Shown here: positions 5,744 through 58,490 of the stretch, piece after piece
Layout of the letters: the number at the start of each line of letters is the position of its first letter
Position numbering within the stretch: position 1 is the first letter of the stretch
Origin: Pseudokineococcus basanitobsidens
GTDB lineage: Bacteria > Actinomycetota > Actinomycetes > Actinomycetales > Quadrisphaeraceae
NCBI RefSeq assembly: GCF_037482545.1
Contig: NZ_JBBIAA010000001.1
Coordinates: 321,226-385,225, forward strand
DNA length: 64,000 nucleotides
Direction of reading: 5' to 3'
Notes under the pieces: model-generated
The model's database searches: none
Seen by the model: only the letters and a program-made list of their open reading frames with translations
Told to the model about the DNA's origin: nothing
Translations under genes and position numbers: made by a program

Positions 5744-5759
5744 GAGCAATCGATTGCTC
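5744..5759. promoter_or_regulatory. perfect 16-bp palindrome GAGCAATCGATTGCTC (candidate LacI-type operator)
   Basis: Read directly from the sequence. It lies in the 267-bp leader upstream of the substrate-binding protein gene at 5937 and shares the AATCGATT core with the 12-mers at 5889 and 19417. Confidence 0.5.
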
Positions 5760-5857
5760 GGACCGTAGGAGCCGGTGCTCGGCGTGTCAACGGAGTGCAG
5801 GACATCGCTCACCGCCGGTCGGGCGACGGGCTCGGGTGGAGGCCCCCGTCCGTCCTG

Positions 5858-5900
5858 TTGACGCCGGCACGGCGGCGTCCTAGCGTGTGAAATCGATTCC
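5858..5900 (+). promoter_or_regulatory. promoter (TTGACG-N17-TAGCGT) with adjacent GAAATCGATTCC operator-like 12-mer
   Basis: -35 TTGACG at 5858..5863, -10 TAGCGT at 5881..5886, and the 12-mer at 5889..5900, 36 bp upstream of the ATG at 5937. The 12-mer is identical to 19417..19428. Confidence 0.5.
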
Positions 5901-5936: not shown

Positions 5937-7295
5937 ATGACCCCGAGCTCGTCCCCGGGCGGTGGGCCGACGCGCCGCGCCGTCCTCGGTGGTGCCGTGG
6001 GTGCCCTCGCGACCGCGGCGTTCGCCGGGTGTGGCCGCAGCGGCGCGGGAGGCGACGGCCGACCGCTGGAGTTCTGGCAGTTCTACGCGCCGCAGTCGCA
6101 GACCCAGCCCGACCTCGCGGCCCAGAACGAGTGGTTCCTCTCGGCCGTCTCCGACTGGAACGCCGCGCACCCCGAGCAGGTGCGGCCCGTCTTCATCCCC
6201 AACTTCACCGATCCCTCGAACACCCGCCTGGCGACCGCCTTCGCCTCCGGCAGCGGCCCGGACGTGTTCCTCATCAGCCCGGGTGACTTCCTGCGCTACT
6301 ACAACGGCGGCGCGCTCCTGGACCTGCGTCCGTACATGGAGGCCGAGGCGGTCGACGACTTCATCGGCGAGGTGCTGGCGACGCGGGTCGTGGGGGACGG
6401 CGTCTACGCGCTGCCGATGGAGGTGGAGCCGCTCGTCATGTTCTACAGCCGCCCCGCGTGGGAGGCAGCCGGGCTCAGCGAGGGTGACATCCCGACGACG
6501 TGGGACGCGATGCTCGACGTCGCCGAGCGACTCACGACGCCGCAGCAGTCGGGGCTCGTCTTCGAGACGACGCCCGGCTACTTCCAGAACTTCACCTGGT
6601 ACCCGTGGCTCTGGCAGGGCGGCGGGGACGTCGTCGACCCGCGGACGCAGCAGGCCACCTTCGACAGCCCGGCGGCACGCCAGGCGCTGGATCTCTTCGG
6701 GTCCGCGATCCGGCGCGGGGTGGCGCCGCGGACCCTGCCGGCAGCGGGCGACGTCGCCGGCGCCTTCGCCGAGGGGTATGCGGCGACCTGGCAGTCGGGG
6801 ATCTGGCAGGTGGCCAACTTCCGCGCCAACCAGCCGGAGTTCGACTTCGGGGTCTTCACGCTGCCGACACCTCCCGACGGTGTCCCCCGGACGGTCCTCG
6901 GCGGGTGGGCCTGGTGCGTCAACGCGCGGGGACGGGACCCCGACGCGGCCGCCCGCTTCGTCGTCGAGACCATCGGCAGCACCTCGGACGCCTCCGTCGA
7001 GCGCCTCGTGCAGTGGTGCTCGGTGGCCAAGACGGACATGCCCCCACGGCAGTCCGTGGACCGGCGGATGCGGGCCGCCGGCGTCTACGACGACCCGGTC
7101 ATGGGCTTCTTCCGCGAGCAGGCGCTGCCGACCGGCAGGGGGGAACCGCGGTACCCACCGGTCCTCTACAAGGCGGTGTCCAACGCCATCCAACGGGTGC
7201 AGGCGGCCGGCGCCTCACCGGCCGAGCAGGCCGCCGAGGCCCAGGCGGCGGTCGAGGCCTTCCTGCGGACCTACGACGGAGGTTCCCTGGTATGA
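5937..7295 (+). CDS. sugar ABC transporter substrate-binding lipoprotein (CUT1 family)
   Basis: 452 aa. Has a signal peptide plus lipobox (AAFAGC) and the solute-binding family 1 fold. Leads an operon with two permeases. Confidence 0.85.
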   Translation: MTPSSSPGGGPTRRAVLGGAVGALATAAFAGCGRSGAGGDGRPLEFWQFYAPQSQTQPDLAAQNEWFLSAVSDWNAAHPEQVRPVFIPNFTDPSNTRLATAFASGSGPDVFLISPGDFLRYYNGGALLDLRPYMEAEAVDDFIGEVLATRVVGDGVYALPMEVEPLVMFYSRPAWEAAGLSEGDIPTTWDAMLDVAERLTTPQQSGLVFETTPGYFQNFTWYPWLWQGGGDVVDPRTQQATFDSPAARQALDLFGSAIRRGVAPRTLPAAGDVAGAFAEGYAATWQSGIWQVANFRANQPEFDFGVFTLPTPPDGVPRTVLGGWAWCVNARGRDPDAAARFVVETIGSTSDASVERLVQWCSVAKTDMPPRQSVDRRMRAAGVYDDPVMGFFREQALPTGRGEPRYPPVLYKAVSNAIQRVQAAGASPAEQAAEAQAAVEAFLRTYDGGSLV

Positions 7296-8257
7296 CCACC
7301 CTCACCTCGAGAGCCCGCACCGGAGGCGACGAGCCGGCGGCGCGAGGTCGTCGCCGCAGCGTCTCGCCCGCGAGCCGCGCCCGGCAGCGCCGGGAGACGC
7401 GCGCCGCGGTCCTGTTCCTGCTGCCGGACTCCCTCGGTCTGCTCGTCTTCGTCTTCGTGCCGATGGTGCTCGCCATCGCCCTGGGCTTCTTCTCCCTCGA
7501 CGGCTTCGGCAACCTCCGCTTCATCGGCGTGGCGAACTACGTCCGCATGGTCGGGGACCCCCAGTTCTTGCAGAGCGCGGTCGTCACGGTCACCTACCTC
7601 GTGGTGCTCGTGCCCGCCGTCTTCGTCGTCTCGCTGCTGCTGGCCCTCCTCGTGCAGCAGAAGGCGCCCTTCATGGGCGCCATCCGCAGCGCGCTGTTCG
7701 CCCCCTACGTGGTGAGCCTCGTCGTCGTCGGGCTGCTGTGGCAGTTCATGCTCGCCGACCGGGTCGGCATCCTGAACCGGATGCTCGCGACGGTCGGCGT
7801 CCGGGACGTCTCCTGGCTCGGCGACCCGCAGTACACCCTGGGCACGGTCGTGGTGATCAGCATCTGGTTCCAGATGGGTTACTACATGATCATCTTCCTG
7901 GCCGGGCTCCAGGACATCCCCGGCGAGTACTACGAGGCGGCGCGCATCGACGGCGCGAACGCCTGGCAGCGTTTCCGCTCCATCACCTGGCCGTTGCTGC
8001 GCCCCACGGCGCTCTTCGTGCTCATCACCCTGACCATCGCCGTCATCACCGGTGGCTTCGACCTCATCTACATCCTCACCGGCGGAGGTCCTGCGGGTTC
8101 GACCTCGCTGCTCGTCTACTTCGTCTACGAGCAGGCGTTCCTCTTCGGCGAGTACGGCTACGCGGCGGCGGTCGGGTCGGTCCTGGTCCTGGTCCTGCTG
8201 CTGTGGTCGGCGCTGATGTTCAAGCTCACGAGGGGAGGTCGGCTCGATGACGAGTGA
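7292..8257 (+). CDS. sugar ABC transporter permease (MalF-like)
   Basis: The ATG at 7292 overlaps the upstream stop (ATGA). Six TM segments and an EAA-type loop (EAARIDGANAWQRFRSITWPLL). Confidence 0.85.
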   Translation: MTTLTSRARTGGDEPAARGRRRSVSPASRARQRRETRAAVLFLLPDSLGLLVFVFVPMVLAIALGFFSLDGFGNLRFIGVANYVRMVGDPQFLQSAVVTVTYLVVLVPAVFVVSLLLALLVQQKAPFMGAIRSALFAPYVVSLVVVGLLWQFMLADRVGILNRMLATVGVRDVSWLGDPQYTLGTVVVISIWFQMGYYMIIFLAGLQDIPGEYYEAARIDGANAWQRFRSITWPLLRPTALFVLITLTIAVITGGFDLIYILTGGGPAGSTSLLVYFVYEQAFLFGEYGYAAAVGSVLVLVLLLWSALMFKLTRGGRLDDE

Positions 8258-9140
8258 CGCTGCCGCCCGGACAGGTCGGTCGGCGCGGTCCGAGGACGCG
8301 CGGACGGCGGGACCCGCGCGAGGAGACAGGCGGTGGACCCGTCGCTCGGTCGTGCTGCTCCTCGTCGGCGCGGGCGTCGGTCTGGTGACGGTCTTCCCGC
8401 TCGTCTACATGGTGCTCAGCGCCTTCAAGACGGCGGGCGACATCTACGGCACCTCCCTGCTGCCGCCGACGTGGACGCTGGAGAATTTCCGCTACGTCTT
8501 CACCGAGGTCCCTTTCGCCCGGTACATGCTCAACAGCCTCGTGGTGTCGGCGGTGGTGACGGTCGCGGCGCTGCTGTTCCACTCGATGGCGGCCTACGCG
8601 CTGGCGCGGCTGCGATTCCCCGGACGGGAGGCGGTGTTCCTCGTCATCTTCTCGACCCTCCTGGTGAGCCTGCCCGTGGTCCTCATCCCCTCCTTCGTCG
8701 TCGTGCGTTCGCTGGGGATGATCGACAGCTACGCCGGGCTCATCGTGCCGCCCATCTTCAGCGCCTTCGGCATCTTCCTCCTGCGGCAGTTCTACCTCTC
8801 GCTGCCGGCGGAGCTGGAGGAGGCCGCCCTCGTCGACGGGGCGGGCTACTGGCGGATCTACTGGAGCGTCGTCCTGCCGCTGTCACGCCCGATCCTCGCG
8901 GCGCTGGCGGTCTTCTTCTTCCTGGCCAACTGGAACTCCTTCGTCTGGCCGCTCACGATCACCGCCGACCCCGGCCTGCGCGTCGTCCAGGTGGGCATCA
9001 GCACCTTCCAGCAGCAGTACGCGTCCAGCCAGAACTACATCGTGGCGGCGTCCACCGTCGCCGCGCTGCCGACGATGCTGCTGTTCTTCTTCTTCCAGAA
9101 GCAGATCACCGAGTCCATCAAGACCTCCGGCCTCAAGTGA
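8247..9140 (+). CDS. sugar ABC transporter permease (MalG-like)
   Basis: 297 aa with an EAALVDGAGYWRIYWSVVLPLSRP motif. Its start overlaps the end of the previous permease. Confidence 0.85.
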   Translation: MTSDAAARTGRSARSEDARTAGPARGDRRWTRRSVVLLLVGAGVGLVTVFPLVYMVLSAFKTAGDIYGTSLLPPTWTLENFRYVFTEVPFARYMLNSLVVSAVVTVAALLFHSMAAYALARLRFPGREAVFLVIFSTLLVSLPVVLIPSFVVVRSLGMIDSYAGLIVPPIFSAFGIFLLRQFYLSLPAELEEAALVDGAGYWRIYWSVVLPLSRPILAALAVFFFLANWNSFVWPLTITADPGLRVVQVGISTFQQQYASSQNYIVAASTVAALPTMLLFFFFQKQITESIKTSGLK

Positions 9141-9168: not shown

Positions 9169-10233
9169 GTGAACCCGCTCGACCTCATGGCCACGCTGCG
9201 TCCTGACGCCAGGACGCGGTCGGCGAGCCCGGAGAACCCCGCCGGCGAGCCCGGGGGCGGGGGTGGCGCCACCGACGGCACGGGGGCCGCGGCGGCGCGC
9301 GACCTGGGTCGGGGCTGGAAGGTGTCGCCCTCGGTCGAGGTCGCCCCCGGCGCCACCCACCCCCTGCTGGAGGCAACGGGCAGCGGTGTCGTGCAGCACC
9401 TGTGGGTGACGACGCACCCGCGCCACTGGCGCGAGCTCGTGCTGCGCATGCACTGGGACGGCGACCCGGCGCCGGCCGTGGAGGTGCCTCTCGGCGACTT
9501 CTTCGGCCAGGGCTGGGGCGAGTTCGCCCAGCTCTCCTCGCAGGTCGTGGCGGCCAACCCCCACGGCGGTCTCAACAGCTACTGGCGCATGCCCTTCCGT
9601 CGCGGCGCGCGCATCACCCTGGACAACCTCGGCGCCGACGCCGCGGTCGTCTACTACCAGGTCACCTGGTCGGAGGAGGAGGTCGGCGAGCACGAGGGGT
9701 ACCTGCACGCCCAGTGGCGCCGCGACCACCCCCTGGAGCGCGGGCGTACCCACGTCCTCCTCGACGGTGTGGAGGGCGCAGGGCACTACGTCGGCACCTA
9801 CCTCGCGTGGGGCGTCAACTCCTCCGGCTGGTGGGGCGAGGGCGAGGTGAAGTTCTACCTCGACGACGACGACGACCTGGCGAGCGTGTGTGGCACCGGC
9901 ACGGAGGACTACTTCGGCGGCGCCTGGAACTTCGACGTCCCCGGGCAGGGCTACACCACCTACTCGACCCCCTACCTCGGCCTGCACCAGGTGCTCCGGC
10001 CGGACGGGTTGTACCGCAGCCAGCAGCGCTTCGGCATGTACCGGTGGCACCTGCCCGACCCGGTGCGCTTCCGCAGCGCGCTGAGGGTGGACGTCCAGGC
10101 GCTCGGCTGGCGCTCCGGCGGCCGGTACCTGCCGCTCGCCGACGACATCGCCTCGACGGCCTTCCTCTACCTCGACCGGACGTCGACGTCGCGTCCGTCA
10201 GCGCCGGGGGTGGACGAGATGGAGGTGCTCTGA
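9169..10233 (+). CDS. GH172 / DUF2961 family glycoside hydrolase (difructose-dianhydride / alpha-furanosidase family)
   Basis: 354 aa. Shows DUF2961 hallmarks (WDGDPAPAVEVPLGDFFGQGWG, GTGTEDYFGGAWN) and is a paralog of 44724..45788. Last gene of the ABC operon. Confidence 0.8.
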   Translation: MNPLDLMATLRPDARTRSASPENPAGEPGGGGGATDGTGAAAARDLGRGWKVSPSVEVAPGATHPLLEATGSGVVQHLWVTTHPRHWRELVLRMHWDGDPAPAVEVPLGDFFGQGWGEFAQLSSQVVAANPHGGLNSYWRMPFRRGARITLDNLGADAAVVYYQVTWSEEEVGEHEGYLHAQWRRDHPLERGRTHVLLDGVEGAGHYVGTYLAWGVNSSGWWGEGEVKFYLDDDDDLASVCGTGTEDYFGGAWNFDVPGQGYTTYSTPYLGLHQVLRPDGLYRSQQRFGMYRWHLPDPVRFRSALRVDVQALGWRSGGRYLPLADDIASTAFLYLDRTSTSRPSAPGVDEMEVL

Positions 10234-11252
10234 CACGTCCGCGCATCCACCCCTGCGGGTCGGCGGGAGCTGCCCCGCACGAGCAGCCGCGCGTCGAGCA
10301 CCACCGTCCGTGCGGGGACGTCCGTAGCCTCGCCGCGCACCCGCTCCAGGAGCAGCTGCGCCGCACGCGTCCCGAGCTCGTAGGCCGGCTGCGCCACGAC
10401 CGTGACGGCCGGCTCGACCAGCGTGCTCCAAGGGGCGTCGTCGAAGGCGACCAGCCCGACGTCCGCTCCCATCCGGAGCCCATGGTCCGCCAGGGCCCGC
10501 AGGACGCCGAGCGCCATGAGCGAGTTGGCGACGAGGAGGGCGTCCGGCGGCTCGTCGGAGTCCAGCAGCGAGGCAGCGGCCGACCGACCGCCTTCCACGG
10601 TGAAGGGCGCCCTCCGGACCAGCGACCCGTCGGCCGACGGCGCCCCCACGGCGTCGCGGTACCCCCGCAGCCGCTCCTCCGCCGTGGCCACCCCCTCGGG
10701 GCCCGTGACGCAGGCCACACGGCCCCACCCCTCCTCGAGGAGGTGCCGTGCGGCGGCCCCGGCCGCCCCCCGCGAGTCGACGAGCACCGCGTCGACGGCG
10801 TCGGGCGACGGTCGGTCGACGCTCACGACCGGGATGCCCGACCGGACGAGCCGGGCGGCGCCGCACCCGGGCGCCGAGGGGGACAGGAGGACGCCGGCGA
10901 CCTGCTCCAGCTCGGCGACGGCGAGGTACTGCGCCTCCTTGGCGGCGTCCTCGTCGGTGTTGCAGAGCAGTACGGAGTAGCCGTTGGCCTGGGCGATGTC
11001 CTCGACGCCGCGGGCGACGGCGGTGAAGAACGGGTTGCTCACGTCGGCGATGAGCAGGGCCCAGACGTCGGTGCGCCGCCGCCGCAGGTTCCGCGCCACG
11101 CCGTTGGGCCGGTAGTCCAACGACGTGGCGGCCTCGAGCACCCGGCGCGCGAGCGCCGGGTCCACGGTGCTGACGCCGTTGAGGGCGCGCGAGGCTGTCG
11201 CGGGGGAGACGCCGGCCATGCGCGCCACGTCCGACAGCTTGGTCACACCCAC
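10167..11252 (-). CDS. LacI family transcriptional regulator
   Basis: N-terminal HTH (LSDVARMAGVSPATASRALNG) plus a periplasmic-binding-fold sugar domain. Its 3' end overlaps the convergent GH172 gene by 67 bp. Confidence 0.8.
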   Translation of the reverse strand: MGVTKLSDVARMAGVSPATASRALNGVSTVDPALARRVLEAATSLDYRPNGVARNLRRRRTDVWALLIADVSNPFFTAVARGVEDIAQANGYSVLLCNTDEDAAKEAQYLAVAELEQVAGVLLSPSAPGCGAARLVRSGIPVVSVDRPSPDAVDAVLVDSRGAAGAAARHLLEEGWGRVACVTGPEGVATAEERLRGYRDAVGAPSADGSLVRRAPFTVEGGRSAAASLLDSDEPPDALLVANSLMALGVLRALADHGLRMGADVGLVAFDDAPWSTLVEPAVTVVAQPAYELGTRAAQLLLERVRGEATDVPARTVVLDARLLVRGSSRRPAGVDARTCQSTSISSTPGADGRDVDVRSR

Positions 11253-11369: not shown

Positions 11370-11390
11370 TTACGTTGACGACCGACGTAA
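11370..11390. promoter_or_regulatory. AT-rich inverted repeat TTACGT-N9-ACGTAA (candidate operator)
   Basis: A locally AT-rich island 35 bp upstream of the GAGAGGAG Shine-Dalgarno of the substrate-binding protein gene at 11425. It lies between the divergent LacI gene and the ABC operon. Confidence 0.4.
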
Positions 11391-11424
11391 AGAGGCCTAC
11401 CGTCCTGCCCGACCGAGAGGAGCG

Positions 11425-12738
11425 ATGGAGCTCATGCCTGTCACCCCAGCGCGCCGAGCGCGCCCCCGTACCTCGACCCGGTCGGCCCTCGTCCGACTCA
11501 CCGCCGCGCTCGCGGCCGTCGCCGCCGGGACGACCGGCTGCACCTTCTCCAGTGCCGAGGCCGGCTCGGGCGACACCGTGCTGACCTTCTGGCACTACTT
11601 CCAGGGCGCCCAGCAGGAGTGGCTCGAGCGGCAGGTCGCCGACTTCGAGGCGGACCACCCCGGCGTCGACATCCAGCTCGTCGAGACCGTCGGGAGCCAG
11701 CACGTGCAGCGGCTGCTCGCCTCGACCGTCACGGGGACCACCCCGGACCTCTTCATCAACAACATCGTCGTCGACTACCCGACCCTGACGTCGGCCGGCG
11801 TGATGCTGGACCTGTCCCCCTACTGGGACGACTACGCCGACGCGGACCAGTTCCCCTCCTCCGCGGTCTGGCGCTCGGGGGACGCGGTCTACGACCTGCT
11901 CCCGTACAACAACCTGCTGGGCCTCTACATGAACACGGACGTGGCCGGTCGGTACGGGATCACCGAGCCCCCCGCGACGCTTCCCGAGCTCGCCCAGGAC
12001 CTCGCCGCGGTCACCGACGGCGGTGACGGCGGGCTCGCCCTGTCCGCGGCACCGTCCGTGGAGGGGGCGTGGCTCTTCGCCCCCGAGCTCCTGGGCGAGG
12101 GCATCGGGTACTGCAACTTCTCCGGACCGCAGGTCGTCGACAGCTTCACGCGCCTCGCCGACTGGGCCCGGGACGGGTACGTCCCGCAGGCGGCGGCCAC
12201 CTGGGACCAGAACGCCTCCTGGCAGCAGTTCATGACGGGGCGCTACGCCTTCGCCCTCAACGGGAACTGGCAGCTCGGCAACGTCGGGTCGGCCGACTTC
12301 GGCTACGTGACGGCGCAGTACCCGGCACCGGCGGACGGCTCCAGCACCGTCTACCCCGGCGGGGAGGGCTTCGCGATCGGCGCGACGAGCGAGCACCCCG
12401 ACCTCGCCTGGGAGTTCCTGCAGGACGAGGTGCTCTCCCGCGACGGCCTGCTGTCCCTGTACGAGGCGGCCGGCTCCATCCCCCTGCGCGCCGACCTGGC
12501 GGACTCCCCGCAGCTCGCCGACGACCCGGACGTGCAGCCCTTCGTCCGCGCGACCCGGAGCACGGCCGAGTGGCCGGACAACACGAGCACCGCGGAGATG
12601 CAGACGGCGCTCGGGGAGGCCGTCAGCGCCACCGTCTCCGGCCAGCTCGGCGGCCGCGCGGCGGCGCGGCAGGCGGTGGCGGACATCGGGCAGGCCCGGT
12701 CCGAGGGCGACGTCGTCGGCGGGGAGGCGTGCTCGTGA
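11425..12738 (+). CDS. sugar ABC transporter substrate-binding lipoprotein
   Basis: The ATG is preceded by GAGAGGAGCG. Has a signal peptide and lipobox (TTGCT) with the family-1 solute-binding fold. Confidence 0.8.
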   Translation: MELMPVTPARRARPRTSTRSALVRLTAALAAVAAGTTGCTFSSAEAGSGDTVLTFWHYFQGAQQEWLERQVADFEADHPGVDIQLVETVGSQHVQRLLASTVTGTTPDLFINNIVVDYPTLTSAGVMLDLSPYWDDYADADQFPSSAVWRSGDAVYDLLPYNNLLGLYMNTDVAGRYGITEPPATLPELAQDLAAVTDGGDGGLALSAAPSVEGAWLFAPELLGEGIGYCNFSGPQVVDSFTRLADWARDGYVPQAAATWDQNASWQQFMTGRYAFALNGNWQLGNVGSADFGYVTAQYPAPADGSSTVYPGGEGFAIGATSEHPDLAWEFLQDEVLSRDGLLSLYEAAGSIPLRADLADSPQLADDPDVQPFVRATRSTAEWPDNTSTAEMQTALGEAVSATVSGQLGGRAAARQAVADIGQARSEGDVVGGEACS

Positions 12739-13664
12739 CCACGCTCGGCGGGCGCACCCTCCCCGCGGCGACGAGGACCCCGAGGCGGCGTCCCGGACGC
12801 GTCCGCCGCCGGCCGCCGGTGGTGTTCCTGCTGCCGACGGCGGTGCTGCTCGTCGTCTTCGGCGCCTACCCGCTCCTCGTGCTCGTCCAGATGTCCTTCA
12901 GCGACGTCGGCCCCGCCACCATCATCGGACCCTGGGACTTCGTGGGCCTCGACAACTACGCCGACGTCCTCGGCGGGGCGGAGGTCTGGCGCTCCCTGCT
13001 GCGCACGGTGGCCGTCGCGGCCGTGCTGCTCCTGAGCAACCTCGTGCTGGGCTTCGTCGTGGCGTCCCTGCTGTCCTTCGAGGGGCGCGTGACCTCCCTC
13101 GTCCTCAGCGTCATGGTCTTCATCTGGGCCCTGCCCCCGCTGGTCAGCGGCAGCACCTGGCGCTTCCTCCTCGACGACACGGGGCTGGTCAACGCGGTCC
13201 TCGGCCTGGTCGGGGTGGGGCCGGTCCCCTGGCTCTCGGAGCCGCGGCTCGCGCTGTGGAGCGTGACCGCCGTCATCGCCTGGGGGGCGCTGCCCTTCTC
13301 GGCCCTGATCCTGCGGGGCGGCCTGCTCGCGGTCGACCCCCAGGTGGTCGAGGCGGCGGCCATCGACGGGGCCGGCTACTGGCGGACCCAGGTGCAGGTG
13401 GTGCTGCCGCTCCTACGGCCCACCCTGTGGATCCTCGGCATCCTCACCGTGCTCTACGCCTTCAAGAGCTTCGACTACTTCTACGTGCTCACCCAGGGCG
13501 GACCCGGCACGGCCACGAACACCCTGCCGGTGCAGTCCTACTACGCGGCCTTCACCGACTTCGACATGAGCACCGGTGCGACCGTCGCCGTGGTCGCGAT
13601 GGCCGTCGTCGTCGCCCTCGCCGTGCCGTACGTGCGCAGCCTCCGGCGGGAGGGGGACGCGTGA
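12735..13664 (+). CDS. sugar ABC transporter permease
   Basis: GTG start overlapping the upstream stop (GTGA). Has TM segments and an EAAAIDGAGYWRTQVQVVLPLLRP loop. Confidence 0.8.
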   Translation: MTTLGGRTLPAATRTPRRRPGRVRRRPPVVFLLPTAVLLVVFGAYPLLVLVQMSFSDVGPATIIGPWDFVGLDNYADVLGGAEVWRSLLRTVAVAAVLLLSNLVLGFVVASLLSFEGRVTSLVLSVMVFIWALPPLVSGSTWRFLLDDTGLVNAVLGLVGVGPVPWLSEPRLALWSVTAVIAWGALPFSALILRGGLLAVDPQVVEAAAIDGAGYWRTQVQVVLPLLRPTLWILGILTVLYAFKSFDYFYVLTQGGPGTATNTLPVQSYYAAFTDFDMSTGATVAVVAMAVVVALAVPYVRSLRREGDA

Positions 13665-14497
13665 ACCGCTTCGTCAGCGGCCCGACGAAGGGCCTCTTCG
13701 CCGTGCTGCGCGTCGTGCTCGCGCTCGCCTACCTCGTCCCGCTCGCCTGGGTCGTGGTGACGTCGCTCAAGAGCGGCCCCGAGGTGCTGCGGTCGCCCAA
13801 CGCCCTGCTCTTCACCCCCACGCTCGACACCTACCGGGACGTCGTGGGGGACGGGCTGGAGGCCATCGCCACGTCGCTGCAGATCGCGGTGCTCGTGACG
13901 CTCGTCGTCCTCGTCGTCGCGGTGCCCGCCGCCTTCGCGCTGGCCCGGCGGATCTCGCCGGTGTGGGAGCGGGTCATCGCGGTCGGGCTCGCCGTCCTGC
14001 TCGTGCTGCAGATGGTGCCGCAGCCGATGACGGTCATCCCGCTGTTCAGCGTGCTGGCGCAGTGGGGCCTGCTCGGGAACCTCGCCGGGCTGGTGCTCGC
14101 CGACATCGCCCTGCTCCTGCCCTTCGGGGTCATGCTGCTGCGCCCCTTCGCGCTGGCCATCTCTCCGAGCCTCTACGAGGCGGCCGAGATCGACGGCGCG
14201 TCCACCGTGCAGAGCTTCCGGCTCATCACCGTGCCGATGCTCTCGAACGGCATCTTCACGGTGATGAGCGTCATCTTCATCACGGCCTGGGGTGAGTTCG
14301 TCTACGCCATCAACTTCCTGCCCCTCGGCGTCGTCCCGCCGGTCTCCGGCCTCCTGGCGCAGCAGAACACCACCTACGCCGCCAACTGGAACGACCTCAT
14401 GGCGCTGGCTGTGCTCACCTCGCTGCCGCTGCTGGTCGTCTTCGTCCTCTCGCAGCGACGGCTGCGCAGCGGGCTGTCGCTGGGGGCGGTGAAGTGA
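13661..14497 (+). CDS. sugar ABC transporter permease
   Basis: GTGA-type overlap with the previous permease. Has an EAAEIDGASTVQSFRLITVPML loop. Confidence 0.8.
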   Translation: MNRFVSGPTKGLFAVLRVVLALAYLVPLAWVVVTSLKSGPEVLRSPNALLFTPTLDTYRDVVGDGLEAIATSLQIAVLVTLVVLVVAVPAAFALARRISPVWERVIAVGLAVLLVLQMVPQPMTVIPLFSVLAQWGLLGNLAGLVLADIALLLPFGVMLLRPFALAISPSLYEAAEIDGASTVQSFRLITVPMLSNGIFTVMSVIFITAWGEFVYAINFLPLGVVPPVSGLLAQQNTTYAANWNDLMALAVLTSLPLLVVFVLSQRRLRSGLSLGAVK

Positions 14498-15756
14498 CGG
14501 CGGCGGAGCCGGACGGGCAGCGGCCCGTCGTCGTCCTCGTGGGGGCGCTGGACACCAAGGCCGCCGAGTACGAGCACCTGCGGGACCGTCTCGAGTCCTC
14601 CGGCGTGCGCGCCGCGGTGGTGGACGTCGGGGTCCTCGGCCCGGTGCGCGCCGACGTCGAGGTCGACCGGCGTGCCGTCGCGGCCGCCGCTGGCGCGGAG
14701 CTCGACGCCCTCGTGGCCGCCGGCGACCGCGGCGCGGCCGTCACCGCCATGGCGCGGGGGGCTGCGGCCGTGGTCGCCCGGATGCACGCGGAGGGGAGGC
14801 TGCACGGCCTCCTGGTGGCGGGTGGGTCCGGCGCGGCGCACGTCATGAGCCGCTGCGCTCAAGCGCTCCCGCTCGGGTGCCCGAAGGTCCTCGTCTCGAC
14901 CGTCGTCGCCGGGGACACGCGGCCGTACGTGGGGACGAGCGACCTCGTGATGATGCACTCCGTCGTCGACCTCACCGGCGTCGACTCCATCAGCGCCGTC
15001 GTGCTGGCGAGGGCGGCGGACGCGTGCGCCGGCATGGTGTTCGGTGCCGTCGCTGCCCCGCCCACGGCGCCGGTGCCGGCGGACGTCGTCGCGTGCTCGG
15101 TCCTCGGGGTCACGACGGCCGGGACGGTCGCCGTCTCCGGCGACCTCCGACGCCGCGGCCTCGAGGTCCACGCGTTCCACGCCAACGGGACCGGCGGCCG
15201 CTGCCTCGAGGCGCTCGTGCGCTCCGGCCTCGTCACGGCCGTGGCGGACCTCACGCCGGGCGAGGTGGCGGACGAGGTGTGCGGGGGGGCCTTCAGCGCC
15301 GGCCCAGGCCGGATGGAGGCGGCGGGGGAGCGGGGCGTCCCCCAGGTGGTGAGCACCGGCGGGCTGGACATGGTGAAGTTCGGCCCCCGCGAGACACTCC
15401 CGGAGGCGGTGGCCGGGCGCCGGCTGCACGTCCACAACCCTGCGGTGACCCTCGTGCGCACCGACGCCCGGGAGTGCGCCGCGATCGGCGCCGTCGTCGC
15501 GGAGAAGCTGAACCGCGCCACCGGTCCGGTAGAGGTGCACGTGCCCCTCGGCGGCTGGTCCGAGCTGTCCGTCCCCGGCGGGCCCTTCCACGACCCCGAC
15601 GCCGACGCGGCGCTGGTGGACGCCCTGCGCGACGGTCTCGCTCCGCGCGTGGAGGTCCACCTGCACGAGGGCGACGTCAACGACCCGGTCTTCGCCACCG
15701 CCGTCGCCGCGGCGCTGGCGCGGACCGTCGAGCAGGACCACCGACCGAGGAGCTGA
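14494..15756 (+). CDS. UPF0261 / Tm-1-like ATP-binding family protein
   Basis: 420 aa. The N-terminus (PVVVLVGALDTKAAEY) is typical of the Tm-1-like family. GTGA overlap with the permease stop. Confidence 0.65.
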   Translation: MTAAEPDGQRPVVVLVGALDTKAAEYEHLRDRLESSGVRAAVVDVGVLGPVRADVEVDRRAVAAAAGAELDALVAAGDRGAAVTAMARGAAAVVARMHAEGRLHGLLVAGGSGAAHVMSRCAQALPLGCPKVLVSTVVAGDTRPYVGTSDLVMMHSVVDLTGVDSISAVVLARAADACAGMVFGAVAAPPTAPVPADVVACSVLGVTTAGTVAVSGDLRRRGLEVHAFHANGTGGRCLEALVRSGLVTAVADLTPGEVADEVCGGAFSAGPGRMEAAGERGVPQVVSTGGLDMVKFGPRETLPEAVAGRRLHVHNPAVTLVRTDARECAAIGAVVAEKLNRATGPVEVHVPLGGWSELSVPGGPFHDPDADAALVDALRDGLAPRVEVHLHEGDVNDPVFATAVAAALARTVEQDHRPRS

Positions 15757-15762
15757 GACGCG

Positions 15763-16665
15763 ATGGCAGCAGAGACCGACGGACCCACCGACGAGCGGGC
15801 GCACCGGGACGGCGCCGCGCCGCCGGGGCGACGCCTGGCCGAGCGGCTGCGGGCCAAGGTCGCCGCGGGGTCGCCGATCATCGGCGGCGGCGCGGGGACA
15901 GGCCTGTCCGCCAAGTGCTCCGAGGCCGCGGGTCTCGACTTCGTCGTCGTGTACAACTCCGGCCGCTACCGGATGGCGGGCCGCAGCTCGATGGCCGGTC
16001 TCATGCCGTACGGGGACGCCAACGCCATCGTCATGGAGATGGGCCAGGAGGTGCTGCCGGTCGTGCGCGACCTGCCGGTCGTCGCCGGCGTCTGCGGGAC
16101 CGACCCCTTCCGGCTCATGCCCGTCTTCCTCCGGCAGGTGCGCGACGCCGGCTTCTGCGGGGTTCAGAACTACCCGACCGTGTGCCTCTTCGAGGGCGTC
16201 ATCAGGGCGAACCTGGAGGAGACGGGGCTGGGCTTCGACCGTGAGGTGGCGATGATCGCGACGGCGCGCGAGCTCGACCTCTTCACCGCCAGCTACGTGG
16301 CCAACCCCGACGAGGCGGAGGCCATGGCTGCCGCCGGTGCCGACGTCGTCGTCGCCCACATGGGCCTGACGACCTCGGGGATGGTCGGCGCGCAGACCGC
16401 GATGACGCTGGAGCAGGCCAAGGCGAAGGTGGGGGAGCTCGCCCGCGCGGCGCGCTCGGCGCGGCCGGACGTGCTCGTCGTCTGCCACGGCGGCCCGGTC
16501 CACGGCCCGCAGGAGGCCGCCGCCGTCATCGCCGACGTGCCCGAGGTCGTCGGCTTCCTCGGCGCCTCGAGCATGGAGAGGCTCCCCACCGAGACGGCCA
16601 TGGTCGACCACATGCGCAGCTTCACGGAGATCGGGATGCCCGCCGGGCGCGGGGGCGGCTCGTGA
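15763..16665 (+). CDS. phosphoenolpyruvate hydrolase-like (TIM-barrel) protein, usual partner of UPF0261
   Basis: 300 aa (IIGGGAGTGLSAKCSEAAGLDFVVVYNSGRYRMAGRSS). The UPF0261 plus PEP-hydrolase-like pairing is a known but uncharacterised gene pair. Confidence 0.65.
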   Translation: MAAETDGPTDERAHRDGAAPPGRRLAERLRAKVAAGSPIIGGGAGTGLSAKCSEAAGLDFVVVYNSGRYRMAGRSSMAGLMPYGDANAIVMEMGQEVLPVVRDLPVVAGVCGTDPFRLMPVFLRQVRDAGFCGVQNYPTVCLFEGVIRANLEETGLGFDREVAMIATARELDLFTASYVANPDEAEAMAAAGADVVVAHMGLTTSGMVGAQTAMTLEQAKAKVGELARAARSARPDVLVVCHGGPVHGPQEAAAVIADVPEVVGFLGASSMERLPTETAMVDHMRSFTEIGMPAGRGGGS

Positions 16666-16976
16666 GCCACCGCATGGTCATCGTCTACGGGGCGCCCGAG
16701 GACCCGGCCGCGTTCCGCCGCTACTACGAGGACCACCACGTGCCGCTGGCCCGGGCCATGGCCGGGCTGACCCGGTGGGACCTCGTCTGGCTGGACCGCG
16801 GTGGCGACGGGGACGGCCGGTACGCGCTGGTGGCCGAGCTGACCGCGGAGAGCGCCGAGGCGATGGACCGGGTGCTCGCCACGCCCGAGGGCCGCGCCGC
16901 CCGGGACGACCTCGAGCGCTTCGTCACCGGGACGGTCGACTTCCTGCGCGGGGACGTCGAGGAGGTCGCGCTGTGA
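16662..16976 (+). CDS. EthD-like / Dabb-fold small protein
   Basis: 104 aa (MVIVYGAPEDPAAFRRYYEDHHVPLA). GTGA overlap upstream and downstream. Confidence 0.55.
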   Translation: MSHRMVIVYGAPEDPAAFRRYYEDHHVPLARAMAGLTRWDLVWLDRGGDGDGRYALVAELTAESAEAMDRVLATPEGRAARDDLERFVTGTVDFLRGDVEEVAL

Positions 16977-18118
16977 GCGGCGCCGGCCTCGTCGTCGCCG
17001 TCGCAGGCCTCGGCTTCGGTGCGGAGTTCGTCCCGATCTACCGGCGGCATCCCGAGGTCGCCGACGTCGTCCTCGTCGAGCCGGACGCCGCGCGGCGCGC
17101 GGCGGCCGCAGAGCGCTTCGGGCTGGGCCCCGGCTGCGCCGACGTCGCCGACGTGCTCGCGGACCCCCGGGTGGACGCGGTGCACCTGCTCGCGCCCGTG
17201 CCGCTGCACGCGGACCTGGCGGTCGCCGTGCTCGAGGCGGGCAAGCACTGCGCCAGCGCCGTACCCGCCGCCACGAGCCTGGAGGACCTCGACCGCCTCG
17301 TCGCGGCAGAGCGGGCGTCCGGACGCTCCTACATGATGATGGAGACGACGGTCTACGCCCGCGAGCTCCTGGCGGTCCGGGAGATGCACGAGCGCGGCGA
17401 GCTCGGCGAGCCGACGCTGTACCGCGGGTGCCACCTCCAGCAGCTCGACGGTTTCCCCGTGTACTGGCAGGGATTCCCGCCGATGCACTACGCCACCCAC
17501 GCGCTCGCCCCGGTGCTGTCCCTGCTCGGCACGACGGTCGAGCGCGTCAGCGCCCGCGGTGCCGGTCGTCTCACTCCGGAGCGCCGGACCGGCGGCTTCG
17601 ACAACCCGTTCCCGGCCGAGGCCGGCCTCTTCGCCCTGCGCGGTAGCGACGTCCTCGCGGACGTGACGGTCTCCTTCTTCCAGACCGCGCGCAGCTACGT
17701 CGAGGGCTTCTGCCTCTACGGCGACCGCCGCGGGGTGGAGTGGCCGGAGGACAACGAGGGCGACCTCACCGTCCACGACATGTCAGGTCCGGCGCCGGGC
17801 TCGCGGGGCAACCGGGTCGTGACGCGCCGGCTGGCCCCTCGCGACCGCCCCGAGCTCCTGCCCGAGCCGCTGCGGCCCTTCGTCCGGCCGACGGAGGTCC
17901 ACCTGCCGGGAGCGCCCGCACCGACGCGGGTCGGCGCCGACCACGGGGGGTCCCATCCCTTCCTCGTCGACGAGTTCGTCCGCAGCGCCGTGGAGGGTCG
18001 TCCCGCCGCCGTGGACGCCCGGACCGCCGCGGCGTGGACGGCGCCCGGCGTCTGCGCGCACACCTCGGCCCTCGAGGGCGGGCGGTGGGTGGAGGTGCCG
18101 GACTACCGGTCCTCCTGA
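16973..18118 (+). CDS. Gfo/Idh/MocA family oxidoreductase
   Basis: GTG start with a 4-nt overlap. Has an N-terminal Rossmann fold (LVVAVAGLGFGAEFVPIYRRHPEVADVVLVEPD) and a C-terminal GFO_IDH_MocA domain. Confidence 0.75.
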   Translation: MSGAGLVVAVAGLGFGAEFVPIYRRHPEVADVVLVEPDAARRAAAAERFGLGPGCADVADVLADPRVDAVHLLAPVPLHADLAVAVLEAGKHCASAVPAATSLEDLDRLVAAERASGRSYMMMETTVYARELLAVREMHERGELGEPTLYRGCHLQQLDGFPVYWQGFPPMHYATHALAPVLSLLGTTVERVSARGAGRLTPERRTGGFDNPFPAEAGLFALRGSDVLADVTVSFFQTARSYVEGFCLYGDRRGVEWPEDNEGDLTVHDMSGPAPGSRGNRVVTRRLAPRDRPELLPEPLRPFVRPTEVHLPGAPAPTRVGADHGGSHPFLVDEFVRSAVEGRPAAVDARTAAAWTAPGVCAHTSALEGGRWVEVPDYRSS

Positions 18119-19347
18119 CGGGCCGGCGCCTCGAGGCCCTCCCCGCGCCCGGGCGGCGCCACGACCGGGGCGGCCGCCAGCCAGGAGCCGGTGACGAGGA
18201 AGCGGTCGACGACGTCGGGGGCGAGGACGTGCTCGAGCACGAGCCGGGCGGCCCCACGGACGCCGGCCAGCGCCCCCAGGCGCGCGGTGACGACCTCGCA
18301 GCCCGGGGCGTCCGTGCTCCGGGCGTCGTCCAGCGCCTCCCGCAGCCCCTCGCGCAGGCCCGGCAGCAGGTGCTCCTCGGCCTCGGCGAGGTAGCCCCAC
18401 ACCACGACGACCTGCGGGTCGAGGAGGGCTACCGAGGGGGCGAGCGCCCGGCCCACGGCCGCGCCCGCGCCCCGGACCGCCCGGCTCGCGGGGCCGGACC
18501 CCCGTCGCGCCAGGTCGACCACGTCCGCGACGTCGGCGACGGGCAGCCCCTCGGCCGCCAGGCGCCGCACGAGCGCGGCCCCGCCGGCCTCGGCGGCGAG
18601 GCCACGCACCCCGCCGAGGTGCCCGGCCCGCCCGCTCGCCCCGCGCAACGGCACGTCGCGGACGACGACGGCGGCGTCGACGAGCGTGCCGAGCTTTACG
18701 CACACGAGGACTTCCGCGTCGGGCCAGGAGCGGCGTTCCTCGGCGAGGGCCAGCAGGTTCACGTCGCGGTCGAGGTGCACGGGCGCGTCGAAGTGCTCGC
18801 GCAGGAGGCGCTGGTGGGTGGGGCCCCAACTGAGGTCCGTGCCCGCGGGTGCGTCCGCGTAGTCCTCGAGCTCGACGGGGCTGGGAAGGCCGAGGCCGAT
18901 CCCGGCGACCTCCGAGAGACCCCGGCCGAGCGTGCGCAGCAGCCCTTCGAGACCCGCGACGACGTCGGCGACCGCGGCGTCGGCGCCGTCGGCCGCGTCG
19001 CCGTCGACGAGTGCGTGGGCGAGCACCTCGCCCGCGAGGTCGACGACGGCGAGGCGAGAGCCGGAGAGCCCCACCTGACCGACGAGCACGACGGCGCCGC
19101 CCGGCGCCAGAGACGCGTGCGCGGCGGGACGCCCCCGCGCCGACGAGCGCGGGCCGTCGAGGACGACGAGCCCGTGCTCGACGAGGAGGTCGAGGCGTTG
19201 GCGGACCGTCGACCGCGAGGCGCCCACCGCGGCCGCCAGCTCGGAGACCGTCGTCGCCGACGCGGACCGCACGAGCTGCAGCAGCCGACCGGCGCCGTCG
19301 ACGGCGAGCTGTGGTCGGGCGGTGGTGCGCGGGGCCGAGGCGGTCAC
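18103..19347 (-). CDS. ROK family transcriptional regulator
   Basis: 414 aa with an N-terminal wHTH (LLQLVRSASATTVSELAAAVGASRSTVRQRLDLLVEHGLV) plus the ROK sugar-kinase-like domain. Confidence 0.8.
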   Translation of the reverse strand: MTASAPRTTARPQLAVDGAGRLLQLVRSASATTVSELAAAVGASRSTVRQRLDLLVEHGLVVLDGPRSSARGRPAAHASLAPGGAVVLVGQVGLSGSRLAVVDLAGEVLAHALVDGDAADGADAAVADVVAGLEGLLRTLGRGLSEVAGIGLGLPSPVELEDYADAPAGTDLSWGPTHQRLLREHFDAPVHLDRDVNLLALAEERRSWPDAEVLVCVKLGTLVDAAVVVRDVPLRGASGRAGHLGGVRGLAAEAGGAALVRRLAAEGLPVADVADVVDLARRGSGPASRAVRGAGAAVGRALAPSVALLDPQVVVVWGYLAEAEEHLLPGLREGLREALDDARSTDAPGCEVVTARLGALAGVRGAARLVLEHVLAPDVVDRFLVTGSWLAAAPVVAPPGRGEGLEAPARQEDR

Positions 19348-19382: not shown

Positions 19383-19428
19383 TTGACGGTCCTCCGCCGT
19401 CGTCCTACGGTTCTCAGAAATCGATTCC
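19383..19428 (+). promoter_or_regulatory. promoter (TTGACG-N17-TACGGT) with GAAATCGATTCC 12-mer
   Basis: -35 at 19383..19388, -10 at 19406..19411, 12-mer at 19417..19428. The GGAGGGGG Shine-Dalgarno and GTG at 19449 follow. The site sits in the region divergent from the ROK regulator gene. Confidence 0.5.
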
Positions 19429-19448: not shown

Positions 19449-20366
19449 GTGCCGAGCGATGCCACCGCCCTGCGTGCCCACCCCGCCCCGCGCCTCGCCG
19501 ACCGGGCGGTCGTCGGGGTCGTCGTCGCCGACATCGCGGACCCCCACTTCGCGCAGCTGGCGCACAGCATCGGCGAGGTGGCGGCCGCCGCCGGCCACCG
19601 GGTGGTCATCGGCAGCACGGGGGAGGACCCGGCCCGGCAGCGCAGCTGCCTGCGGGGGCTGGTCGACGACGGCGTGGCCGGTGTCGTCCTCGTCCCCACC
19701 GGCGACGACGGCACCGACGTCCGGACGGTCCTCGACGGCGGCGTCCCCGTGGTGGCGCTCGACCGCCCCGTGGCCGACCTGCGCGCCGACTCGGTCCGGG
19801 TGGACGACGAGGCGGCGGGACGGGTGGCGACCGCGCACCTGCTCTCGCTCGGGCACCGGGCGACCGCGTTCGTCGGCGGCCCGGCCGACGTCGCCACCGC
19901 CGCGGGCCGGCTGCGTGGCTACGAGGTAGCGGTCGCCGCTGCGGGCAGGGAGCCCCGGAGCGCTTCCGGGCCCTTCACGGTGGACGGCGGGAGGTGCACC
20001 ACCCGGTCGCTCCTCGCCGGCGACCCGCTGCTGACGGCGGTCGTCGCCGCGAGCGACCTCGTCGCGGTCGGCGTCGTCCAGGCCCTGCGCGCGGCAGGGC
20101 GCCGGATCCCCGAGGACGTCGCGGTGGCGACGGTCGACGACCCCTTCTACAGCGCGTGCGTCGACCCGCCCTTGACGTCGGTGGCCCAGCCCGTCCGCCG
20201 CCTCGCGGAGAGGTCCGTGCACCTGCTGCTGGAGCGGTGCCGCGGTGAGCGCGCCGAGCCGGTGCACGAGGTGCTCGGCGTCAAGCTGGTCGTGCGCGCC
20301 TCCAGCGGCGGCAGCGTGTGGGCCGCTGCGGTCTCCGGCGCCCCGGGGCGCCGAGGAAGGTCGTGA
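19449..20366 (+). CDS. LacI-family periplasmic-binding-fold protein lacking the N-terminal HTH
   Basis: Begins directly at the sugar-domain motif (AVVGVVVADIADPHFAQLAHSIGEVAAAAGHRVVIGST) and runs through the C-terminal dimerisation region. No HTH is encoded in any frame upstream. Confidence 0.6.
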   Translation: MPSDATALRAHPAPRLADRAVVGVVVADIADPHFAQLAHSIGEVAAAAGHRVVIGSTGEDPARQRSCLRGLVDDGVAGVVLVPTGDDGTDVRTVLDGGVPVVALDRPVADLRADSVRVDDEAAGRVATAHLLSLGHRATAFVGGPADVATAAGRLRGYEVAVAAAGREPRSASGPFTVDGGRCTTRSLLAGDPLLTAVVAASDLVAVGVVQALRAAGRRIPEDVAVATVDDPFYSACVDPPLTSVAQPVRRLAERSVHLLLERCRGERAEPVHEVLGVKLVVRASSGGSVWAAAVSGAPGRRGRS

Positions 20367-45788: not shown

Positions 45789-45789
45789 G

Positions 45790-47265: not shown

Positions 47266-47345
47266 GGTGCCTCCTCGTCCTCGAGGGTCCGGCCGCCGGT
47301 CGTGACGGTCGGGTCGGTGGGTGGGGACGACGTCCCCGGCCGGAA

Positions 47346-47361
47346 ATGTACGCGCATACAT
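47346..47361. promoter_or_regulatory. 16-bp palindrome ATGTACGCGCATACAT (one mismatch) in divergent promoter region
   Basis: Lies between the sulfatase gene (-) and the sugar-phosphate isomerase gene (+). Near-identical to 50789..50804. Confidence 0.5.
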
Positions 47362-47488
47362 CGGTGTCCACGGCCAGGGCGGGCGAGGTCCGGGAGGGGA
47401 TTGACACCGCGTCCGCCGTGGTGGTCACCTGCGGCCTGCCGCGAGCCGTGCGGCGGGGACGTCGACGCGCGAGGGAGCCGGGTGGGCC

Positions 47489-48292: not shown

Positions 48293-48378
48293 CCCCGTCC
48301 GCCCACCGGGCCGCGGACGCGTCCCGGTGAGGAGCGCCCGCGCGGTGCTCGACCGCACCCGACGACACAGGAGGACCC

Positions 48379-49542: not shown

Positions 49543-49625
49543 GCGACGGGGCCGGTGCCCTCCGCCGGCCCCCCGGGGGTGCACACTCCCCGCCGGACAC
49601 CCGGGACGAGCGGAAGGGGCTGGCG

Positions 49626-58441: not shown

Positions 58442-58490
58442 CCGCGCCCGCCGCCGCACCGACCGGCATCCCTGCCACGGAGGAGCTGAC

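Follow-up and report, generated by a model that had tools for sequence, protein, structure and literature searches.

We analysed a 64,000-nucleotide stretch of the genome of Pseudokineococcus basanitobsidens (referred to as the window; G+C content, ca. 75%), which carries a seven-gene operon at 11425–18118. In this operon, the genes for a UPF0261 (Tm-1-like) ATP-binding protein and a PF09370 barrel stand between those of a CUT1-type ATP-binding cassette (ABC) importer and those of an EthD-family protein and an atypical GFO/IDH/MocA enzyme (referred to as GFO). Accompanied by a ROK-family regulator gene, the operon forms a cassette of eight genes that was found in at least 12 other actinobacterial loci and that is very probably an autonomous unit of regulated uptake and catabolism. 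In the window and in one Microbacterium genome, the cassette sits within a D-arabinan utilization locus.

Operon structure and the conserved cassette

The seven genes lie consecutively on the plus strand in the open reading frame (ORF) listing, and each frame was backed by frame analysis of the G+C content at third codon positions (GC3). The domain calls of the original prediction, which had been made from the DNA letters without database searches, were all confirmed by Pfam and NCBIfam. The genes and control elements of the operon are as follows.

11425–12738, plus strand: solute-binding protein (SBP) of a CUT1-type importer (PF13416, 1.6e-32; PF01547, 4.5e-27)
12735–13664, plus strand: ABC permease 1, MalF/UgpA-like (PF00528, 3.7e-16), with a GTGA overlap with the SBP gene
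13661–14497, plus strand: ABC permease 2, MalG/UgpE-like (PF00528, 1.2e-9), with a GTGA overlap
14494–15756, plus strand: UPF0261/Tm-1-like ATP-binding protein, putative ATP-dependent (ADP-forming) kinase subunit
15763–16665, plus strand: PF09370 "phosphoenolpyruvate (PEP) hydrolase-like" (β/α)8 barrel, putative phosphate-ester-converting enzyme
16662–16976, plus strand: EthD-family small α+β barrel protein (PF07110; TIGR02118)
16973–18118, plus strand: atypical NAD(P)-binding enzyme of the GFO/IDH/MocA family, with AVP replacing EKP and a GH109-like fold
18103–19347, minus strand: ROK-family regulator with an N-terminal helix-turn-helix (HTH) (PF00480, 5e-23, and HTH matches)
10167–11252, minus strand: regulator of the LacI family, oriented divergently to the operon (HTH of the LacI type and Peripla_BP domains)
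11370–11403, plus strand: operon promoter and overlapping dyad (cross-genome conservation)

Five of the six junctions (SBP/permease 1, permease 1/permease 2, permease 2/UPF0261, barrel/EthD, and EthD/GFO) are 4-nt GTGA overlaps, and none of the six is an ATGA overlap. At the remaining UPF0261/barrel junction (TGA-GACGCG-ATG), 6 nt separate the two genes, which share one reading frame, and the barrel gene has a GAGGAG ribosome-binding site 10 nt upstream. The original prediction had joined all seven genes by 4-nt GTGA or ATGA overlaps, which is correct for five junctions but not for the UPF0261/barrel gap. Its conclusion that 11425–18118 is one operon holds despite this gap because no spacer exceeds 6 nt, an E. 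coli-type promoter and terminator scan of the operon found no internal promoter-like or terminator-like site, and the gene order is conserved.

In every locus inspected around the closest UPF0261 homologues, a ROK gene on the minus strand accompanies the order SBP–permease–permease–UPF0261–barrel–(EthD)–GFO. Because the same order recurs in at least 12 other loci, the seven-gene arrangement is a real operon and not a product of chance, and the predicted coupling of a CUT1 sugar importer to the UPF0261, barrel, EthD, and GFO genes is strengthened by this cross-genome conservation. The cassette loci are listed below.

L081: Microbacteriaceae metagenome-assembled genome
L082: Rathayibacter soli
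L083: Pseudonocardia sichuanensis
L084: assembled contig of 2.1 Mb
L085: Leifsonia sp. L25
L086: Friedmanniella endophytica
L089: soil contig with the full cassette, from the metagenome scan
L168: Labedella gwakjiensis
L169: Brachybacterium sacelli
L170: Microbacterium sp. CIAB417
L171/L172: another Microbacterium
L094: partial and more distant cassette, from the metagenome scan

Most contigs in the metagenome scan were short, and it contributed the one full (L089) and the one partial (L094) further cassette. The cassette proteins were 55–63% (SBP), 67–71% (permease 1), 69–77% (permease 2), 73–80% (barrel), 55–62% (EthD), and 65–73% (GFO) identical to those of the window; for UPF0261 the identity was only 55–62%, even for the closest homologues. 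The flanks outside the eight cassette genes were unrelated between genomes. Neither Pfam nor NCBIfam detected a canonical sugar kinase or glycoside hydrolase (GH) within the cassette. The EthD gene is present in most cassettes and wholly absent from L081 (8724–8813), where EthD may be dispensable or encoded elsewhere.

The importer has the composition of a CUT1 system, namely an SBP_bac_1/8 binding protein and two BPD_transp_1 permeases. Given its RR-containing signal and TTGC lipobox, the SBP is probably a lipoprotein; its gene has the ribosome-binding site GAGAGGAG ahead of the ATG. Pfam detected no ABC ATPase (ABC_tran) gene between 11425 and 18118. Actinobacteria usually rely on a shared MsiK-type ATPase. 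Among solved structures, even the nearest to the SBP are remote (9XF5, a cycloisomaltooligosaccharide binder, 8e-19), too remote for an inference of the ligand, which was dropped.

The operon promoter consists of a −35 element TTGACG (11375–11380), a 17-nt spacer, and a −10 element TACCGT (11398–11403), and ends ca. 20 nt before the SBP start codon. It is overlapped by a dyad, TTACGT (11370–11375)/ACGTAA (11385–11390). An E. coli-type consensus scan did not detect this promoter, and the call rests on cross-genome conservation: in 10 of the 10 cassettes compared, a TTGAC(R)-N17/18-TA(C/G)NNT promoter lies upstream of the SBP gene and a GTTGAC-N-CAAC(A/G)T dyad covers the −35 element, with the perfect form ATGTTGA-N3-TCAACAT in two of them. 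Since a ROK gene accompanies every cassette, ROK is probably the cognate repressor, and the dyad at 11370–11390 is a putative ROK operator. The ROK gene divergently adjoins the SBP gene in all other intact cassettes, whereas in the window it is convergent with the GFO gene and overlaps it by 16 nt. The ROK gene of the window has moved to the 3′ end of the cassette, and the LacI gene at 10167–11252 holds the divergent position.

UPF0261 protein, barrel partner, and accompanying enzymes

Both domains of the UPF0261 protein were matched at full length (PF06792, 8.1e-52, residues 12–182; PF23189, 2e-78, residues 198–410), and NF002674 gave 452 bits against a cut-off of 335. Its solved-structure matches were Tm-1 (1e-69) and MarK (9MPY, 5e-57, residues 10–408). 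In Novosphingobium aromaticivorans, the UPF0261 protein MarK (Saro_1862) stands alone and is an ATP-dependent, ADP-forming kinase that phosphorylates acetovanillone and related phenols; in its structure, the acceptor oxygen is hydrogen-bonded to His219 of the C-terminal domain (PMC12624787). This activity is the only catalysis demonstrated for the UPF0261 family. The window protein shares with MarK the two-domain architecture, the D-T-K triad of the ATP site, the glycine, and two pocket histidines: D14/T15/K16, G195, H219, and H304 of MarK correspond to D20/T21/K22, G205, H229, and H314. In Tm-1, the lysine of the triad is K20. Among 136 homologues, DTK and G205 were invariant, H314 was conserved in 135, and H229 in 131; wild-type MarK carries Glu at an otherwise invariant Lys. 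The substrate-contact residues T196, F283, I285, and H348 of MarK are replaced by V206, M293, K295, and L358. The alignment thus shows that the window protein shares the machinery of a UPF0261 kinase and, because these specificity residues are replaced, is not an isofunctional orthologue of MarK. Its setting differs as well, as MarK is encoded in an acetovanillone carboxylase operon of aromatic catabolism and the window protein alongside a sugar importer.

Several further observations were made on UPF0261 genes. K295 and L358 of the window protein match a Streptomyces clade of stand-alone UPF0261 proteins and not the other cassette members (N295 and I358). For the barrel and GFO of this genome, database entries of 100% identity turned up in a protein search; for UPF0261, whose ORF is intact and of full length, identity reached 62% at best, and the source annotation may have missed this gene or marked it otherwise. 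A second, divergent UPF0261 paralogue (38–44% identical) was found a few kb from the pair in L020, L040, L036, L043, L091, L101, and L133, usually without a barrel of its own and adjoining FAD oxidase, xylose-isomerase-like, and creatininase genes.

The barrel matched its family over the full length (PF09370, 1e-117), and the closest solved structure was Mll9387 of Mesorhizobium loti (2P10, 2.5e-93), deposited as a "putative phosphonopyruvate hydrolase". That name implies PEP mutase/isocitrate lyase chemistry, to which the fold comparison gave no specific support. After 2P10, the nearest folds to the barrel model were those of phosphate-binding barrels, namely triosephosphate isomerase, indole-3-glycerol phosphate synthase, 4ML9, PdxS, and 2-keto-3-deoxy-6-phosphogalactonate aldolase; a specific closeness to PEP mutase/isocitrate lyase enzymes was rejected, as the fold resembles generic phosphate-binding TIM barrels. 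Judging from the model, the name "PEP hydrolase-like" appears weakly founded. In the model, invariant motifs follow β7 (H242-G-G-P; β7, 238–242) and β8 (G267-A-S-S; β8, 264–266). Ca. 60 barrel residues were invariant over 95 homologues, many of them charged and placed after β1–β6 at the C-terminal face of the barrel. Because of these motifs, which resemble a phosphate site, and the invariant charged residues, we propose that the barrel may act on the phosphate ester made by its kinase partner. We found no functional data or publication for Mll9387 in the literature.

The barrel is an obligate partner of UPF0261. Among the 112 loci with enough flanking sequence, the barrel gene directly adjoined the UPF0261 gene on the same strand in 87 and lay downstream of it in 81. 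Identity to the window UPF0261 co-varied with identity to the window barrel (r = 0.72, n = 114). The exceptions are mostly members of the Streptomyces clade, in which UPF0261 occurs alone. A phylogenetic-profiling study reported COG5441/COG5564 as a strongly co-occurring pair in fungi, and in plants UPF0261 and the PF09370 barrel are fused in one Tm-1-like polypeptide (PMC5028733). Tomato Tm-1 and the plant and fungal Tm-1-like proteins (3WRV–3WRY) have the same two modules and bind ATP, and the plant fusion supports a physical and functional unit. Unlike Tm-1, which is known for inhibiting tobamovirus replication by binding, the two modules here are encoded by separate, coupled genes in a catabolic operon. 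The literature searched contains no reaction for the barrel or the pair beyond MarK and the phylogenetic-profile co-occurrence. The original prediction had described the pair as widespread and without an assigned biochemical function. The former is borne out by UPF0261 relatives in at least 598 of the 600 stretches examined from GTDB species genomes and by more than 8000 barrel homologues; the latter still applies to the barrel and the pair but no longer to UPF0261, for which MarK is a precedent.

To survey the contexts of the pair, six-frame ORFs from 87 loci (73–78% GC) were clustered, and the representatives were annotated with Pfam. The pair follows a Liv-type importer (two BPD_transp_2 and Peripla_BP_6) in ca. 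17 loci from Thermoleophilia, Gaiellales, Solirubrobacterales, and others. Its recurrent neighbours are zinc-dependent alcohol dehydrogenases, GlcD-like FAD oxidases with a CCG/Fe-S subunit, xylose-isomerase-like barrels, GFO, creatininase, short-chain dehydrogenases/reductases (SDRs), molybdenum hydroxylases, GntR/FCD regulators, ABM proteins, FAA hydrolases, glyoxalases, and enolase-superfamily proteins. Using a small query panel on the 52 pair loci flanked on each side by 6 kb of sequence or more, we found an ABC importer part within 7 kb in 24 (15 Liv-type, 7 CUT1, and 2 with the ATPase only) and none detectable by this panel in 28. An absence of any consistent link to transporters had been named as the outcome that would speak against the original prediction, and these numbers go partly that way. 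The survey suggests a single, conserved reaction of the pair that serves various uptake and oxidation pathways.

GFO has an N-terminal Rossmann fold (PF01408, 3.8e-14) with an invariant GxGxxG motif (G12-L-G14-F-G16). Its A96-V97-P98 aligns with the Glu-Lys-Pro (EKP) catalytic motif of the Zymomonas glucose–fructose oxidoreductase, and AVP was invariant in 20 orthologues. The C-terminal half had no sequence match to any solved structure. The best fold match of the GFO model was GH109, over almost the full length, and its best structural matches were the GH109 α-N-acetylgalactosaminidase and other NAD-dependent glycosidases and isomerases (2IXB, 6T2B, 8QC2, and RgNanOx 6Z3C). These enzymes are examples of redox-assisted, net-neutral sugar chemistry on the GFO fold. 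An assignment of GFO to GH109 by Pfam was dropped because the hit was not reproducible. A lone orthologue of the cassette GFO was seen in a sulfatase/GFO/AP_endonuc_2 cluster of Microlunatus (L173), which is similar to the second sugar cluster of the window (44724–50729). EthD was assigned by PF07110 (2.1e-11, 45.3 bits, cut-off 22) and TIGR02118 (3.9e-20, 72.4 bits, cut-off 30.5) and matched the solved structure 2FTR (9e-9); it is possibly an isomerase, mutarotase, or tautomerase.

D-arabinan locus around the cassette

The cassette is surrounded in the window by the following genes and sites.

3843–5669, minus strand: GH183/DUF4185 protein (DUF4185, 2.8e-12)
5937–9140, plus strand: second CUT1 importer (SBP and permeases confirmed)
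9169–10233, plus strand: GH172 exo-α-D-arabinofuranosidase (match to ExoMA1 8IC8, 8.4e-158)
19449–20366, plus strand: HTH-less LacI-like protein, start probably GTG at 19449
Ending at 22069, start uncertain (homology from 20438): FucI-like isomerase, 65% identical to the FucI-like protein of L170
22158–23417: protein similar to 3-dehydroquinate synthase
23463 to ca. 25020, minus strand: FGGY kinase
5889–5900 and 19417–19428: 12-mer operator GAAATCGATTCC

This gene set resembles the D-arabinan locus of Microbacterium arabinogalactanolyticum (PMC10509167) in its GH183 endo-arabinanase, ExoMA1-type GH172, CUT1 importer, isomerase, and kinase. Neither the main text nor the supplements of that description mention a UPF0261/barrel/EthD/GFO cassette (PMC10509167). 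The window differs from the M. arabinogalactanolyticum locus in having the cassette inserted mid-locus with its own regulator and operator and in lacking the exo-β-D-arabinofuranosidase GH116: a tblastn search of the 64-kb window with the L170 GH116 protein gave no match, unlike Microbacterium arabinan loci.

A second genome has the same association. The L170 locus comprises GH183, importer, ROK, cassette, SDR, GH172, LacI, GH116, and FucI genes, which is the gene set of the window plus GH116, in a different gene order and in a different taxonomic order. The GH172 proteins of the two loci are 64% identical. The LacI at 10167–11252 has its orthologue in the LacI of the Microbacterium D-arabinan locus and shares 43% identity with the L170 LacI encoded between GH172 and GH116. 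Directly after the cassette, L081 and L082 carry an ExoMA1-type GH172 gene (64–67% identical). In total, GH172 was found within 10 kb of 4 of ca. 13 cassettes, in four genera, a count with p of ca. 5e-6 to 2e-3 when 1–5% of cassettes are taken to have a GH172 neighbour by chance.

The operator GAAATCGATTCC lies just after −10-like elements of the GH172 operon and the isomerase operon, with four matches against 0.34 expected. The GTG at 19449 is probably the start of the LacI-like gene because a promoter and this operator stand immediately upstream. A related, perfect palindrome, GAGCAATCGATTGCTC, was seen at 5745–5760 before the GH183 gene. The two sequences suggest a LacI-type regulon of the arabinan genes from which the cassette is excluded. 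A common LacI operator for the cassette and the arabinan genes was considered and rejected, as GAAATCGATTCC does not occur upstream of the cassette. In the LacI-like protein at 19449–20366, Pfam detected only Peripla_BP domains, and the L170 LacI aligned with it only from its residue 60.

Elsewhere in the window, a second sugar cluster at 44724–50729 includes a LacI-like gene and an ORF for a GH172 paralogue (44724–45788) that is 36% identical to the L170 GH172. The other genes of this part are listed below.

45790–47424, minus strand: sulfatase
47405–48292: xylose-isomerase-like barrel
48331–49542: canonical GFO

An ORF of ca. 1316 amino acids at 58095–62045 (plus strand) has SOGP N-terminal, supersandwich, and GH94-like catalytic domains and encodes a putative β-1,2-glucan-type phosphorylase.

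Proposed pathway, alternatives, and implications

We propose a pathway of import, NAD-dependent conversion, ATP-dependent phosphorylation, and conversion of the phosphate ester by the barrel; as a whole, we hold this model tentatively, at somewhat below an even chance. The CUT1 importer would take up a small carbohydrate with an ATPase supplied from elsewhere. The carbohydrate would be, here and in at least three other genomes, probably a breakdown product of D-arabinan (the mycobacterial-type cell-wall arabinan); taken by itself, an arabinan-derived substrate seems possible rather than probable. In an NAD-dependent step, GFO would then either oxidize the carbohydrate to a keto sugar or cleave it with redox assistance, as GH109 does. 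In a MarK-like reaction, UPF0261 would move the γ-phosphate of ATP to an acceptor group (hydroxyl or enol) positioned between His229 and His314, forming ADP, and the barrel would bind the new phosphate ester through its HGGP/GASS site and isomerize or cleave it. A role of the pair as a kinase and a phosphate-ester-converting barrel comes close to an even chance. EthD would serve as a small isomerase or mutarotase. We infer the order of these steps, the kinase activity of the window UPF0261, the phosphate-ester role of the barrel, ROK as the binder of the dyad, and the substrate.

The Lsr (autoinducer-2) and DUF1537/Otn acid-sugar pathways likewise consist of an ABC importer, a kinase, a small α+β-barrel or TIM-type isomerase, a cleaving TIM barrel, and in some cases a dehydrogenase. 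The likeness lies only in the pathway logic, and none of their proteins is homologous to those of the cassette.

Several points weigh against the proposed pathway. With regard to the substrate, ca. two thirds of the cassettes have neither GH172 nor GH183 within 10 kb, and for D-arabinose the arabinan locus already has an isomerase and a kinase of its own. Moreover, the cassette, physically inside the arabinan locus, appears to be separately regulated and to answer its own signal because it lacks the GAAATCGATTCC operator of the arabinan genes. As for the enzymes, the catalytic lysine of the family is replaced in GFO, so its dehydrogenase activity is uncertain. HGGP and GASS look like a standard phosphate site, an argument drawn from a model and motifs. 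MarK works alone, without a TIM-barrel partner, and its putative ATP site, D14-T15-K16 of the N-terminal domain, is ca. 25 Å from the acceptor site (PMC12624787). Finally, the UPF0261 pocket (V206, M293, N/K295, H229, H314, and I/L358) is near-identical in CUT1-sugar, Liv-type, and stand-alone contexts, and the barrel is 46–80% identical throughout these contexts; one metabolite common to these contexts, with no relation to what is imported, may thus be the substrate of the pair. Because the pocket is near-constant in all contexts, the substrate of the pair is more likely a common oxidized intermediate downstream than the imported compound. The original prediction had suggested an ATP-dependent modification of the imported sugar; an ATP-dependent step is still most likely, and the constancy of the pocket argues against the imported sugar as its target.

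The arabinan neighbourhood could be incidental: the cassette would then be a mobile unit whose substrate, a sugar, polyol, or sugar acid common in soil, has nothing to do with D-arabinan. The wholly different flanks between genomes, the stand-alone position of most cassettes, and the cassette operator, which differs from the one common to the arabinan genes, are in line with this explanation. Against it, GH172 is rare and yet occurs near cassettes in the four genera mentioned above, and the cassette lies inside a full GH183/GH172/isomerase locus in two distant orders with differing gene order. On balance, we regard an incidental neighbourhood as rather doubtful.

Alternatively, UPF0261 could be the dedicated sugar kinase of the pathway: with the aid of the barrel, it would phosphorylate the imported sugar itself, or modify it with ATP in another way, before any other cytoplasmic step. 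The translational coupling (GTGA) of its gene to the last permease gene, the absence of another kinase from the cassette, and the fact that MarK phosphorylates the entry substrate of its own pathway would fit. However, a pocket that is the same in all three contexts is unexpected if it reads the imported compound, and the role of the barrel would be left unexplained. We therefore consider direct phosphorylation of the imported sugar unlikely.

The GH109-like fold of GFO bears on a further explanation, in which GFO works like GH109, GH188, or RgNanOx, as a glycosidase or isomerase that depends on NAD but is redox-neutral, and the Tm-1-like pair and EthD salvage the released unit. Its target would be a glycoside that resists the hydrolases of the arabinan locus, such as a substituted or β-linked D-arabinofuranoside. 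We judge this distinctly unlikely. That the pair is a ligand- or energy-sensing module modulating transport or neighbouring enzymes, and not catabolic, is very improbable: some databases name the barrel a regulator (P0204), an old annotation reads "TIM-barrel signal transduction protein", the ligand pocket is independent of context, and Tm-1 acts by ATP-bridged protein binding and not by catalysis, but MarK is a true catalyst, the barrel has its ca. 60 invariant, often charged residues at the C-terminal face, the genes are embedded between permease and enzyme genes and translationally coupled, Pfam detected no DNA-binding or signalling output domain, and the cassette already has a ROK regulator.

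Returning to the proposed pathway, the individual families of the cassette are known, one of them (UPF0261) with a demonstrated activity. As a sugar catabolic operon built around uncharacterized enzymes, the cassette is not surprising in kind. The literature searched describes neither the eight-gene cassette and its conserved operator nor the repeated insertion of the cassette into D-arabinan loci, and it has no account of the GFO partner without EKP or of the pocket of the pair that is independent of context. As a compact regulon that comes with a binding protein, a probable repressor, and an operator of its own, the cassette provides a tractable entry point, and its hosts include culturable genera (Microbacterium, Rathayibacter, Leifsonia, Brachybacterium, and Pseudokineococcus). 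The genomic link to D-arabinan breakdown narrows the candidate substrates and makes the Tm-1-like function directly testable.

The cassette may reveal a missing branch of mycobacterial and corynebacterial cell-wall glycan turnover in soil. The pair, the EKP-less GH109-like GFO, and EthD could together form an as yet undescribed, hydrolase-free route for a D-arabinan-derived furanoside or pentose, which we regard as improbable. Such a route may be an alternative D-arabinose/D-arabinofuranoside pathway or one for a substituted arabinan fragment. If this is true, a role in physiology and biochemistry would for the first time be known for the Tm-1-like pair, which is conserved from bacteria and archaea to fungi and plants. 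The native chemistry of the pair could also explain the role of plant Tm-1-like proteins before one of them was recruited for virus resistance.

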